Source of the DNA: Methanobacteriota archaeon
GTDB lineage: Archaea > Thermoplasmatota > E2 > DHVEG-1
Direction: 5' to 3'
Length of the DNA: 64,000 nucleotides
NCBI GenBank assembly: GCA_963769885.1
Contig: CAVYNH010000007.1
Span: 416,001 to 480,000, forward strand
Of the stretch, positions 6,220-17,698 are shown piece after piece (position 1 is the first letter of the stretch; each line of letters opens with the position of its first letter). Both the position numbers and the translations under genes were made by a program. The notes under the pieces were generated by a model, which saw only the letters and a list, made by a program, of their open reading frames with translations, ran no database searches and was not told the DNA's origin.

Positions 6220-7581
6220 TTAGAGGACGTGGAAGTACCGCGCGGTCTCCCAGGCGGTGACCTGCATTTGGTACTCCTCCCATTCCGTGCGCTTGATTGC
6301 TATGAAGTTTTCGAAGACGTTGCTGCCTAGGGCGTCCCTGATGAAAGTGCTCTTCTGCATGATCTCCAGGGCATGGCCGAGGCTTTCGGGGAGCTGGCCG
6401 ATGCCGTACGATGCCCGTTCCTTGGGGGTCAGTGCGTAGATGTTACGTTCGACGGGTTCCGGGGCTTTGAGTTTGCGTTTGATACCGTCAAGGCCGGCGG
6501 CGATCATGACGGTGTAGGCGAGGTAGGGGTTGCAGGCGACGTCTGGGTTGCGCAGTTCGATACGCGTCGCCTGTCCACGGTTCGCTGGGATGCGGATGAG
6601 GGAGCTGCGGTTGCGGTTCGCCCAGCAGATATAGGTGGGGGCTTCGTAGCCGGGGACGAGGCGTTTGAAGGAGTTCACGGTCGGGTTGAGGACGGCGCAC
6701 ATCTCCCGGGAATGGGTGAGGAGCCCGGCGAGGAATGAGTACGCAAGCGGGCTGAGTTTGTGCTTGTCTCCTGGGTCATAGAAGGCGTTCTTGCCGGCTG
6801 GCGTGCACATCGAAATGTGGGTATGCATCCCTGAGCCGTTCGTCCCAAAGAGGGGCTTGGGCATGAACGAGGCGTACAAACCATGGCTGTCAGCGATGAT
6901 TTTACTCACGTATTTCAAGGTGATGACGCGCTCCGCTGTCGTGAGTGGGTCGGCGTAGTTGAAGTTGATCTCCTGCTGTCCGGGGGCGACCTCATGGTGC
7001 GTGGTGTAGATCTCGAGGCCGAGCTGCTGCAATGCCATGGCGATGTCCGCCCGGACGGTTTCTGCCAGGTCACGGTGGGAGAGGTCGAAGTAGCCGGCGT
7101 TGTCATGCGGCAGCAAGGTCGGACCGTCGCTGTTTCGCTGGAAGAGGAAGAATTCGCATTCAGAGCCGGTATTGCAGCGGTACCCGAGTTTGTCCGCCTT
7201 TTGCAATATCTGTTGTAGTACGTATCGGACGTCGCCGGGGAAGCGTTGTTTTCCGTCCTGTTCATAGATGTCGCAGCTGATTTTCGCGGTCTTCCGTGGC
7301 TCGATGCTCTCAGGGATGATGCTGAAGCTGGCGGGGATTGGGCGGATGACCTTGTCTGATTCTTCGATGTTGGCACAGCCGATGATGGACGAGGCGTCGA
7401 ACGGGATCCCGTTGTCCAACGCGTCCTTGAGGAGTCCTGAGGGGATGACGAGGTTGCGCGGCATCCCGAGAAGGTCGACGAACTGGAGGCGGATGAACCG
7501 GATGTTCTCATGGGCAACAGTCGATAGGATAGAGTCCGCAGTCCAGAATTCAGCCGATTTCGTCGACGTTACGTTTTTCAT
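6220..7581 (-). CDS. glnA: Glutamine synthetase type I
   Basis: IRFIRLQFVD, ECEFFLF, HHEVAPGQQEINF, GSGMHTHIS, NSFKRLVPGYEAP, NRSSLIRIP, RIELRNPD. Confidence 0.96.
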   Translation of the reverse strand: MKNVTSTKSAEFWTADSILSTVAHENIRFIRLQFVDLLGMPRNLVIPSGLLKDALDNGIPFDASSIIGCANIEESDKVIRPIPASFSIIPESIEPRKTAKISCDIYEQDGKQRFPGDVRYVLQQILQKADKLGYRCNTGSECEFFLFQRNSDGPTLLPHDNAGYFDLSHRDLAETVRADIAMALQQLGLEIYTTHHEVAPGQQEINFNYADPLTTAERVITLKYVSKIIADSHGLYASFMPKPLFGTNGSGMHTHISMCTPAGKNAFYDPGDKHKLSPLAYSFLAGLLTHSREMCAVLNPTVNSFKRLVPGYEAPTYICWANRNRSSLIRIPANRGQATRIELRNPDVACNPYLAYTVMIAAGLDGIKRKLKAPEPVERNIYALTPKERASYGIGQLPESLGHALEIMQKSTFIRDALGSNVFENFIAIKRTEWEEYQMQVTAWETARYFHVL

Positions 7582-7822
7582 CTATAAAACCTCCACCCGA
7601 AAGAGCATACTTCATCCCGTATGGACGCACGCCCTTTTTTAATTTCCGAAACAGCTGATTCCCCCCCTGCTTCGTCGCCTCCTCGCGTACGGACATTTTT
7701 CGAGGAAAAAATGACGAAGAGGACAGGAGGAGGGCCCCCGTTGCTCGAAATTACAATCCTTCGCAAACTATTAAAAGAAAAAACAGATTCGGACCACCAA
7801 ATATACCCGGGGAGTTGCCTTC

Positions 7823-16600: not shown

Positions 16601-16868
16601 CGGCGCGGGGCCGGCAAGCGACATTGATTTGCTTGTGCATTTCCGAGGCACTGAGGAGCAGAAGGAAAAACTCCTGGAGTGGTTCGCTTCCTGGGGCAAG
16701 AAGTTTGACGATGAAAACAAGGAGCGTACCGGAATCAGGACCGGGGGGCTGCTTGATGTCCATATCATCACCGACGAGGATATTAAGAACAAGACGTCCT
16801 GGGCAACGCATCTGACGTCCCCATACTTGACTGCGTTGAAAGTGCCGTTGGAGAAAGAGCAACTCTAG
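13677..16868 (+). CDS. GAF-like sensor + PPDK-type ATP-grasp + His-motif domain + C-terminal nucleotidyltransferase protein; function unknown
   Basis: N-terminal ERVKELNCLY...PPAWQYP...EGPFLKEER sensor segment; GKLGGK, IVRSSSLLED, FSGKY, MGILVQEVVG, DIEFA, FLQCRP; GPGRWGS, SFGTHFF; C-terminal IGSTKDGGAGPASDIDLLV (GS...DxD). Confidence 0.85.
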   Translation: MAIAEKTEFQKATQHEPSMSSYHTINELKERVKELNCLYGLTKIVKNTKYTVDEAIQNIIALIPPAWQYPDITCARISFEGGKEYVTKNFRESKWSQISNIIADEKKIGVLEVYYTEERPMQHEGPFLKEERRLIDAIATLIGQFFEERRVKEELRKKKIAPYVKPVSTKKAGETPTQKKQDWEVIIDLLIKTDPRTLLRITRKMTYYLYRHNNEKITDLQNQITPIDSTSTARGINMPNPRTDLQSLVTFQKHVFDIAKESIPSQVISELFQDWLRSDKARPLLLTSQKTGVPLSEIREELTRFMEKTDIETSLSEEDTIGIKTAMIRRFVTDRLEYVNVAKSYFELEDFVQLLSCIIGPAQGAGKLGGKTGGVILAEKILRTEMKNDALLKDIDFPRSWYITSDTVAAFVHHNDLDDVFHIKYLDPGEIRQEQPFLEQIFKNAFFPYEIVEGLRGIITAVKDKPIIVRSSSLLEDSYGAAFSGKYKSLFVPNLGSEEERLKALMDAIAEVYASTFGPDPIEYRRERGLLDFNEEMGILVQEVVGTRIGPYYMPSYAGVAFSRNEFRWSPRIRREDGMIRLVPGLGTRAVDRVGNDYPILISPFRPELQVNTLIEERIKYSPRYMDVINMQTGLIETVEIEDLLRNYGDQIPLFDNIVSVHEQGRLIAPNVICDLATADLVVTFQNLFDKSDFLPKMKRILSILEEKIGSPVDIEFACDGHRFYFLQCRPQSQSRGMERVPVPKDIPREQKLFTARRFITTGQIENIEYIVYVNPEAYGALESREKMLRIARIVGDLNNKLPRRKFILMGPGRWGSRGDIKLGVPVRYADINNTSLLVEIAKEKGDYTPELSFGTHFFQDLVEANIRYLPLYPDQPDIIFNEDILMAAENHMAEIINSGAQNETTIRLIKVSDIVPGGSLRVIMDGDAGEALGYFKPPDHWDWRVQKVKQIAKSLDPELYGIHAMYVIGSTKDGGAGPASDIDLLVHFRGTEEQKEKLLEWFASWGKKFDDENKERTGIRTGGLLDVHIITDEDIKNKTSWATHLTSPYLTALKVPLEKEQL

Positions 16869-17698
16869 CCGATCAGCTGACGAGACGCCTGAGTGAGGCA
16901 CGCTGGGTCGAAGGTGATGAGAGACAGCTTCGGTTTGTCGGTTGATCCGTTGAAGCAGACGGTGTTCCCTATCCTGATTCTCCAGTGTTTGGTGAGTCGA
17001 GTCGCCTCATGCACATGGCCATGCATCGTGAGGAGCGGCTGATGGCGTTCGATGAACCGCCTGACTGCGATGCTGCCGACGTGGACATCCAGGGGCGCGA
17101 AATCAACTTTCTTTCCATCTAAGGCGGCCCGGTCAAGCGCCGTCTGGTAGGGCGGTGAATGGAAGAGAACTATGGTTTTTTTCATGGGAAGGTTTTCCGC
17201 GAGTTTTTCGAGATCCTCTGTGATGTACCCATGGAGGATGTGGTCCACAGAAAAGGGGACGGTATGTGTGCCTTCGATGGGGGGGATGGTTCCGACGTCG
17301 TCGTGGGAGGATACGTCGTAGCGTTCCCAGTCTTTCAGGAGGAAGGGAGTCGGTGGCACATAGGCGTACCCGGCGACTGTGTAGGGGGGGAGTTGCGTGG
17401 ACCGTTCATGGAGGTAGGTGAGGATGCCGTCGTGGTCTGCTGCTTGAAAGGCGGCTTCATGAATTCGGGGGTTGTCGTTTCCAAGGATGAGGAAGAATCG
17501 GGTGCGTTTTGCGTGGGCGCGGATGGGTGTGAGCAGGTAGGTGGTGATGAAGTCGTGAATCGGGAGTTGGCTGTGGTGGGTGGGAAGGAGGTCGCCTCCG
17601 ATGAAGACGGCGTCGGGGTGGTCGGTCTCAATGGCGTGGAAGAGGGCCGCGTATCGGGTGATGCTGCCGTGAAGATCTGAGGTGAAGAAGCAGTGCAC
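16865..17698 (-). CDS. Calcineurin-like metallophosphoesterase (Icc-related)
   Basis: SDLHG, GGDL, GNDN, FHSPP, HGHVHE motifs. Likely GTG start at 17698 with a GAGGT RBS; the ORF-track extension to 18283 is spurious. Confidence 0.88.
   Translation of the reverse strand: MHCFFTSDLHGSITRYAALFHAIETDHPDAVFIGGDLLPTHHSQLPIHDFITTYLLTPIRAHAKRTRFFLILGNDNPRIHEAAFQAADHDGILTYLHERSTQLPPYTVAGYAYVPPTPFLLKDWERYDVSSHDDVGTIPPIEGTHTVPFSVDHILHGYITEDLEKLAENLPMKKTIVLFHSPPYQTALDRAALDGKKVDFAPLDVHVGSIAVRRFIERHQPLLTMHGHVHEATRLTKHWRIRIGNTVCFNGSTDKPKLSLITFDPACLTQASRQLIG

Follow-up and report, generated by a model that had tools for sequence, protein, structure and literature searches.

Here we describe a conserved set of four genes, gdh2-P1-P2-MPE, found in a 64,000-nucleotide stretch of DNA from a Methanobacteriota archaeon (GTDB lineage Archaea; Thermoplasmatota; E2; DHVEG-1; GenBank assembly GCA_963769885.1, contig CAVYNH010000007.1, forward-strand positions 416,001 to 480,000). 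This whole stretch is called the window below, all coordinates are positions in it, and f1 denotes the window's own family within Thermoplasmatota. The first gene of the set, gdh2 (9299-10621, + strand), encodes an archaeal-type glutamate dehydrogenase (GDH) according to both Pfam and NCBIfam, and is followed after 13 bp by the gene for P1 (10635-13670, +; 1011 amino acids counted from its ATG) and, after another 6 bp, by that for P2 (13677-16868, +; 1063 amino acids). Convergent to P2 lies a gene for a metallophosphoesterase (MPE) of 277 amino acids (16865-17698, -; PF00149, 40.6 bits), with the letters CTAG common to the stop codons of both. Upstream of gdh2 and co-oriented with it is gdhA (7823-9160, +), which encodes an NADP-type GDH of the PRK09414 class (776 bits in NCBIfam), and divergent from the latter is glnA (6220-7581, -), a type I glutamine synthetase (GS; TIGR00653, 494 bits) that is considered here only as context. 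An earlier note on this stretch, made from its sequence, had given the same arrangement of open reading frames (ORFs), including the two short gaps and the overlap of the MPE with the last stop, and the ORF map and junction sequences agree with it throughout. In the 138-bp spacer between gdhA and gdh2 (9161-9298, +) there are oligo-T runs and, about 55 nucleotides 5' of the gdh2 ATG, the element TTTATAT; the spacer reads as a likely terminator followed by an archaeal promoter. Hence gdh2, P1 and P2 probably form an operon of their own; gdhA is probably a separate transcription unit.

Domain architecture of P1, P2 and the metallophosphoesterase

P1 combines a pseudo-receiver, a receiver, a linker, an ATP-grasp domain of the PPDK_N type and a terminal domain with a GPGRWGS/GSHFF signature, while P2 consists of a GAF-like head, a helical region, an ATP-grasp domain, an equivalent C-domain and a nucleotidyltransferase. 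The two proteins are paralogs that have a core of about 530 amino acids in common (29% identity, E 3e-49). This core comprises the PPDK_N ATP-grasp (PF01326; 116 bits in P1 and 184 bits in P2, against a cut-off of 27) and a C-domain of about 200 amino acids, which has no Pfam model and is marked by GPGRWGS...G[ST]HFF with an invariant histidine. In P1 the ATP-grasp domain (11958-13100, +) keeps the GGK, RSS..LED and E..Q.R motifs, and the C-domain (13122-13589, +) carries the invariant histidine as His927 (codon 13413-13415). The corresponding parts of P2 are an ATP-grasp domain at 14778-15905 (+), whose top Foldseek matches are to dikinases, and a C-domain at 15909-16496 (+) of the form GPGRWGS...SFGTHFF, with the histidine at position 857 (codon 16245-16247). 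An alignment of 51 diverse cores, P1 among them, showed GGK, RSS, E132, E372/Q384/R386, GPGRWG, E496 and S-x-G-x-H-F to be invariant, and both P1 and a third paralog, P3 (described below), retain all of these residues. As they are invariant across such diverse members, the ATP-grasp of P1 and P2 looks catalytically competent, and His927 of P1 and His857 of P2 are the obvious candidates for a phosphorylated histidine.

The earlier note had recognized in both proteins the ATP-grasp domain of phosphoenolpyruvate (PEP) synthase (PEPS) and pyruvate phosphate dikinase (PPDK) without the PEP/pyruvate-binding barrel, and searches with Pfam and NCBIfam bear this out: neither P1 nor P2 has the TIM barrel (PF02896, PEP-utilizers_C), and the mobile phospho-His domain PF00391 is missing from both in Pfam even at an E-value of 10. 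Their scores against the NCBIfam models of PEPS are 16-48 bits, far below the cut-offs of 598-883. The host genome (2.09 Mb, 92% complete) encodes elsewhere a canonical three-domain PEPS of 806 amino acids that carries the PF02896 barrel; hence P1 and P2 are not the PEPS of this cell, as the note had held in describing them as dikinase-like proteins of another kind. Also encoded elsewhere in this archaeal genome is a rifampin-phosphotransferase-like protein of 839 amino acids (G000:C6:404887-407406, L173:1388-3907), which has PPDK_N N-terminally and, C-terminally, a canonical PEP-utilizers mobile domain.

Structural comparisons point in the same direction for the core. In the AlphaFold2 (AF2) models the P2 core reaches a pLDDT of 90.5 and the C-domain one of 95. 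The top Foldseek matches of the core, obtained via the ATP-grasp, are rifampin phosphotransferase (5HV1/5HV3, E 4.5e-17), HpeI (as HpeHI, 9GOJ, E 2.2e-13), PEPS and PPDK, and a sequence search of the PDB with the core gave only marginal matches to PEPS and PPDK. An exhaustive VIA search with the C-domain placed phospho-His swivel domains among the top rows at a Z of about 5, a level common for this tool: these were PPDK 2fm4 (Z 5.4), residues 756-867 of rifampin phosphotransferase 5hv1 (5.0), residues 383-511 of maize PPDK 1vbg (5.0) and, within 5.0-5.4, Enzyme I 5woy and 2wqd. The top rows also held the pyruvate kinase C-terminal domain 2e28, and more swivelling beta/beta/alpha folds stood in the same list. 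In the AF2 model the invariant histidine lies at the start of a helix, directly after a strand, which we take to be the placement seen in the G-G-x-T-S-H motif of PPDK. As these Z values are low, we treat the C-domain as a candidate, if likely, divergent phospho-His swivel domain.

A search of 1.84 billion representative proteins with only the C-domain as query recovered 1517 clusters, and in every full-length match checked PPDK_N lies directly N-terminal to it; searches of the ESM Atlas by shape and by features returned the family itself only. The family occurs in several size forms, namely the core only (about 590 amino acids), the core with a helical N-terminal region (about 770), forms that further have a GAF-like head (about 920-980) and then a nucleotidyltransferase as well (about 1050), and two cores in tandem (about 1500-1650). 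Four metagenomic proteins (P0123, P0125, P0127 and P0141) are giants of 1480-1650 amino acids with two ATP-grasp/C-domain cores per chain, as if P1 and P2 had been fused into one protein.

The accessory domains differ between the two proteins. In an alignment of 11 P1 and 44 P3 sequences the first receiver-like domain of P1 (10752-11144, +) has lost the acceptor aspartate, with SSS and DL.I.FN replacing DD and D, while the second (11196-11594, +) keeps the ED acidic pair, the acceptor aspartate, the serine and the lysine. The Response_reg model (PF00072) is matched by 38 of 50 P1/P3 N-termini (best E 5e-11), and the window P1 itself scores 26.5 bits, below the cut-off of 30.2. For the receivers claimed for P1, Pfam matches exist in most of the family; the window protein falls short of the model, and its first domain lacks the aspartate. 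The Pfam domain DUF5752 is matched by 29 of the 50 P1/P3 N-terminal regions (best E 3.3e-07) and not by the window P1; by elimination, without match coordinates, it would fall between receiver 2 and the ATP-grasp (about 11600-11950 in the window). The head of P2 (13749-14126, +) is a conserved pattern of about 130 amino acids, KELNCLY...EGPFL..EE..LI, whose language-model neighbours are GAF clusters (0.86-0.89), which by the rating of the tool are leads only. The P2 N-terminus has no Pfam match and no sequence match in the PDB, so that the GAF-like assignment has look-alikes in its favour and no Pfam support.

At its C-terminus P2 carries a further domain that the earlier note had not mentioned. 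The last 120 or so amino acids (16509-16865, +) form a minimal nucleotidyltransferase of the GS...DxD type, with Asp982 and Asp984 (PF01909, 30.6 bits in one search and up to 34 overall, cut-off 21). The GS and DxD motifs are invariant in 44 sequences, and a profile search of the PDB with this domain retrieved minimal nucleotidyltransferases (MNT) and kanamycin nucleotidyltransferase (KNTase). Neither GlnE domains nor the HD and ACT domains of GlnD were reported for P2 by Pfam or NCBIfam.

The MPE displays DLHG, GGD, GNDN, H and GHVH, that is, all the metal-binding motifs of calcineurin-like phosphoesterases except that GNH is changed to GND. This GND(D/N) is kept without exception in 31 archaeal and bacterial orthologs, and the protein has no sequence match in the PDB. 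The same 31 orthologs conserve a private LKDWE.YD motif. Among loci whose P2 bears the nucleotidyltransferase, the MPE is present in 30 of the 34 with P1 and in none of the 7 without it, and it therefore tracks P1 and not the nucleotidyltransferase. We considered the MPE as a specific partner of the nucleotidyltransferase and rejected this on account of those 7 loci.

Linkage of the module to a dedicated glutamate dehydrogenase

To survey the gene neighborhoods we used 60 regions of at most 20 kb around P1/P2-like genes, drawn from 401 Thermoplasmatota genomes, onto which the window proteins were mapped. The arrangement gdh2-P1-P2, with the convergent MPE, is kept in the families f1, f22, f38 and f40, and Gdh2 lies directly 5' of P1 in these regions wherever the contig extends far enough. 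Linkage to glnA is kept among Thermoplasmatota only in f1.

Bacteria contribute at least 597 loci from GTDB species genomes, in Chloroflexota, Planctomycetota, Zixibacteria, Acidobacteriota, Bacteroidota, Myxococcota, Desulfobacterota, NC10, Gemmatimonadota and other phyla, of which the best 80 were surveyed in detail. A Gdh2-type GDH is in the flank of 44 of these best 80 loci, and glnA is near in 2 of them. Among evaluable bacterial loci, a P2 with the nucleotidyltransferase has gdh directly upstream in 19 of 21 cases and somewhere in the locus in all 21; for the core-only forms gdh is adjacent in 14 of 42 and elsewhere in the locus in 9 more. Bellilinea caldifistulae GOMI-1 (locus L132) is a bacterium with such a core-only form beside its GDH. 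Bacterial P1 proteins consist of the core only (about 590-620 amino acids) and have no receiver. All-against-all clustering of the bacterial flank ORFs revealed no widely recurrent neighbor besides GDH, P1 and the MPE, the next commonest being DnaN and a deoxynucleoside kinase, within Chloroflexota. As the gene arrangement recurs across two domains of life, it is far beyond chance. Proteins of the P1/P2 type are thus strongly and specifically tied to gdh, as the earlier note had expected; the tie it had also expected to glnA is a local one, and we accordingly rejected GS as a conserved target of the module, glnA being near only in f1 and in the two bacterial loci.

The co-occurrence of the two genes across whole genomes provides a test that is not selected on P2. 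With a Gdh2 search at E <= 1e-150, Gdh2 was found in 45 and P2 in 47 of the 401 Thermoplasmatota genomes, and both in 44. The lone genome with Gdh2 only is 73% complete, and each of the three with P2 only is either incomplete or a contig-end case. Within f1 the Gdh2 and P2 sets are identical, comprising 26 genomes, and in the other 28, which span many genera, neither was found. In 201 Acidobacteriota genomes a P2-like protein occurs in 57 and a Gdh2-like protein in 57, with both in 56 and one genome having each alone; the single GDH-only case is a borderline match of 47% identity. Related genomes are not independent, yet this pattern needs many joint gains or losses.

Gdh2 itself belongs to the Glu/Leu/Phe/Val dehydrogenases, with both ELFV domains found. 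Its catalytic motifs are intact, since KGG, GGGKGG, the aspartate and GFGNV are invariant or nearly so in 41 module-linked GDHs. In a tree of 92 GDHs from P2-selected loci, a 42-member clade with a support of 99, in which archaea and bacteria are mixed, has P1/P2 directly behind the GDH in all 42 cases; in a second clade mostly core-only forms come after it; and in the GdhA clade, into which the window gdhA falls, P3 comes after 12 of 30. Compared with the other GDH clades the module-linked clade has nine private invariant positions, and its private residues include His126, Gln133, Trp140, Met160, His165, Phe284, Asn382 and Ile425, of which His126 is replaced elsewhere by Lys/Arg and His165 by Glu/Ile. 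There is also a 6-amino-acid insert at Gdh2 residues 255-260. These residues and the insert are no more than pointers to a possible interface or acceptor site. The GDHs of archaeal and bacterial modules share 62-70% identity with the window Gdh2, and the linked bacterial P2 proteins about 41-47% identical to the window P2, which suggests that gdh2-P1-P2-MPE moves as a block. Taken together, these results show gdh2-P1-P2-MPE to be a single conserved unit that goes with the Gdh2-type GDH, and we hold a functional bond between the module and Gdh2 to be very probable.

The third paralog, P3, has a receiver-receiver-core architecture of about 975-1030 amino acids and is 31-33% identical to P1. It follows GdhA in 11 of the 12 P3 loci of f1, in the order glnA(-) gdhA P3 nfnA nfnB, and is near GdhA in f12 and f10; in f27, f30 and parts of f22 and f38 no GDH lies within 10 kb of P3. 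In the genome of the window P3 was not found, although GdhA is present. The P3 loci of relatives are L032, L038 and L042-L051. Outside the archaea, a Zixibacteria genome (G402) has a GdhA-type GDH about 1.6 kb from a P3-like gene, and in an Acidobacteria locus (L151) a GdhA-type GDH adjoins a P3-like gene. A third type of GDH, 41-43% identical to Gdh2, lies directly 5' of nfnAB in some relatives (L032:1490-2710 and L036:14272-15507).

The remaining features of the locus are given as context. A pair of nfnAB/sudAB-type genes (18735-21019, +) lies downstream, its B subunit matching TIGR01316 (NADPH-dependent glutamate synthase GltA) in NCBIfam; such a pair adjoins the locus mainly in f1, and the window has it without the third GDH type. 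On the same strand as glnA and 96 bp downstream of it is a gene for an ArsR-type helix-turn-helix protein of 150 amino acids (5672-6124, -), which may be a local transcription regulator. Over the whole window (1-64000) GC and AT skew track the coding strand very strongly, with a GC skew of about -0.3 to -0.4 over + strand genes and about +0.3 over - strand genes. Coding strands are thus C-rich and A-rich, and P1 is consequently rich in Thr, His, Pro and Gln.

A possible covalent switch on Gdh2 and its alternatives

The above architecture makes it, in our estimation, about an even bet that the module is a signal-controlled, protein-directed His-phosphoryl/nucleotidyl switch on Gdh2. According to this proposal the ATP-grasp would load a phosphoryl group onto the invariant histidine (His927 of P1, His857 of P2) of the swivel-like domain. 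As neither protein has a domain for a small molecule of the PEP/pyruvate kind, the acceptor would most likely be a protein, either Gdh2 itself or, in the archaeal form, the receiver aspartate of P1. Inputs might enter as a metabolite bound by the GAF-like head of P2 and as phosphorylation of the P1 receiver; a second output might be the transfer of AMP or UMP by the minimal nucleotidyltransferase of P2; and the MPE would reverse a mark linked to P1. The role of an eraser, which the earlier note had given to the phosphoesterase, would thus be only partly right, in that the enzyme goes with P1 and not with the nucleotidyltransferase. The net effect would be an ATP-dependent, signal-controlled switch that turns Gdh2 on and off or sets its direction.

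Several points weigh against this proposal. While the build of the proteins, their retained catalytic motifs, the conserved module and its occurrence together with Gdh2 are shown, that P1 and P2 phosphorylate themselves, what they act on and how GDH responds are inferred. The likeness of the C-domain to swivel domains is weak (Z about 5): Foldseek gave no match for it in the PDB at E <= 0.001, and an hhalign comparison of its profile with the mobile domain of the genome's own PEPS indicated no relation (probability 0.3). Forms of 590 and 770 amino acids without sensor, nucleotidyltransferase or MPE are GDH-linked, so that these parts are accessories and not the core of the system. The structurally closest characterized relatives, rifampin phosphotransferase and HpeHI, both act on small molecules. 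Finally, that the module is paired near-obligately with its own GDH clade is what one would expect of a subunit or a pathway partner no less than of a regulator.

The main rival is a metabolic role, in which the ATP-grasp/His core would phosphorylate a small molecule linked to GDH, such as 2-oxoglutarate, glutamate, ammonia or a nucleotide cofactor, possibly while it is bound on the GDH, and Gdh2 would work in an ATP-coupled pathway with the sensor, nucleotidyltransferase and MPE tuning the enzyme. The near-obligate co-occurrence, the persistence of GDH linkage in core-only forms without signalling domains (the 14 adjacent and 9 further cases among 42) and the nature of the nearest relatives of solved structure, the small-molecule dikinases rifampin phosphotransferase, HpeI and PEPS, all agree with it. 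Nevertheless, we consider it unlikely, given that there is no recognizable substrate-binding domain after or inside the core, that a receiver, a GAF-like head, a nucleotidyltransferase and a phosphoesterase are parts typically seen in signalling, and that no known metabolite fits. We would assign a still smaller likelihood to the idea that Gdh2 and the dikinase-like core constitute an obligate ATP-coupled GDH system, in which a His-phosphoryl relay is needed for the reaction or drives it or its direction, with AMP/UMP transfer as a second layer; the module would then be an enzyme system of a new kind and not a regulator added to an ordinary GDH. Comparably improbable is a non-canonical phosphorelay with an output other than GDH, where P2 would sense a metabolite, autophosphorylate on its histidine and pass the phosphoryl group to the P1 receiver or to other regulators, and gdh2 would be co-regulated cargo. 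The invariant histidine and the receiver of P1 and P3 with intact acceptor Asp, Ser and Lys speak for such a relay, but the module and its GDH linkage persist in bacteria, whose P1 has no receiver, there is no DNA-binding or other output domain, and simple cargo would hardly account for a GDH clade of the module's own.

The earlier note had itself suggested one dedicated modifier for each GDH, or for GS, with the phosphoesterase as eraser, which we took to mean erasure of the nucleotidyl mark. The presence of two GDHs beside two dikinase-like proteins and a divergent glnA gave this some appeal, and in relatives GdhA does pair with P3 and Gdh2 with P1/P2, one kind of paralog to each GDH type. 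However, P1 and P2 are not divided between the GDHs: both always stand behind Gdh2, even in loci where GdhA is missing or lies at another site, and P1, P2 and the MPE all belong to Gdh2. The genome of the window has no P3, glnA is scarce at the bacterial loci, and the MPE is missing from the 7 loci that have the nucleotidyltransferase without P1. This suggestion is thus very unlikely, and its extension to GS is not supported either. The probability that P1 and P2 are ordinary PEPS/PPDK paralogs is negligible; relatives carry the name 'pyruvate, water dikinase' in databases, but the missing PF02896 and PF00391 domains, the low NCBIfam scores and the canonical 806-amino-acid enzyme elsewhere in the genome speak against a PEPS function, which as far as architecture goes is refuted.

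Known systems and biological implications

The components of the module can be compared with several known systems. PEPS and PPDK (PF01326 + PF00391 + PF02896) resemble P1 and P2 in PPDK_N with GGK, RSS and D[IV]E[FW]A...Q.RP and in a His-bearing domain directly after it. They differ in having the TIM barrel, whereas the His domain of P1 and P2 has about 200 amino acids, no PF00391 and the GPGRWGS...G[ST]HFF signature, and is joined by sensor, receiver and nucleotidyltransferase domains. Rifampin phosphotransferase and HpeHI, the latter a two-component dikinase acting on a small molecule (PMC12167813), are likewise dikinases made of an ATP-grasp and a His domain without a barrel. Unlike P1 and P2, they have a canonical PF00391, a small-molecule binding domain or subunit and no GDH linkage; relative to the order ATP-grasp, substrate domain, PF00391 of rifampin phosphotransferase, P1 and P2 lack both the middle domain and PF00391.

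Functionally the closest analog is the Mycobacterium tuberculosis protein VadK (Rv1127c). This truncated PPDK autophosphorylates on a histidine and binds neighboring metabolic enzymes (PMC13400623). It has the two-domain logic of ATP-grasp plus His domain in common with P1 and P2. It differs in being PPDK-derived, with a canonical His domain, in having no sensor, nucleotidyltransferase or MPE partners, and in its targets, which are methylcitrate-cycle enzymes rather than GDH (PMC13400623). GlnE/GS and GlnD/PII resemble the module in placing a Pol-beta-type nucleotidyltransferase beside a phosphohydrolase in a nitrogen-assimilation locus, and would resemble it, if our proposal is correct, in marking a central enzyme of nitrogen metabolism covalently and reversibly; in the module, by contrast, an MNT-type domain of about 120 amino acids is fused to a dikinase-like core and the linked enzyme is GDH rather than GS or PII. 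A covalent mark on GDH has a precedent in SelO, which AMPylates mammalian GDH (GLUD1) and thereby inactivates it (PMC12375108), although this writer is unrelated (pseudokinase fold), eukaryotic and without genetic linkage. VadK and SelO together support the logic of a protein-directed switch on Gdh2.

In a literature search we found no description of the P1/P2 family or of its linkage to GDH. In the genome of the window we found no PII (PF00543), no Amt (PF00909) and no large subunit of glutamate synthase (GOGAT; PF01645) above the cut-off, though with the genome 92% complete their absence is not proven, and gdhA and gdh2 of this locus are the only two true GDHs. A system independent of PII, as the earlier note had supposed, is consistent with these results, and its broader idea of an undescribed system of this kind at the glutamate node stands.

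GDH lies at the junction of carbon and nitrogen metabolism, and its control in prokaryotes is thought to be mostly transcriptional or allosteric. The module points to an unrecognized layer of control, or of energy coupling, at the glutamate node, and one that is widespread in uncultured sediment and soil lineages. It also defines a new His-bearing domain after the PPDK_N ATP-grasp and corrects hundreds of annotations as 'PEP synthase'. Because Gdh2 and P2 co-occur almost perfectly, the hypothesis can be put to a direct test with four recombinant proteins. If it is instead the obligate system that proves true, Gdh2 and its partners would give organisms without PII, Amt and GOGAT an ATP-dependent route at the glutamate node.

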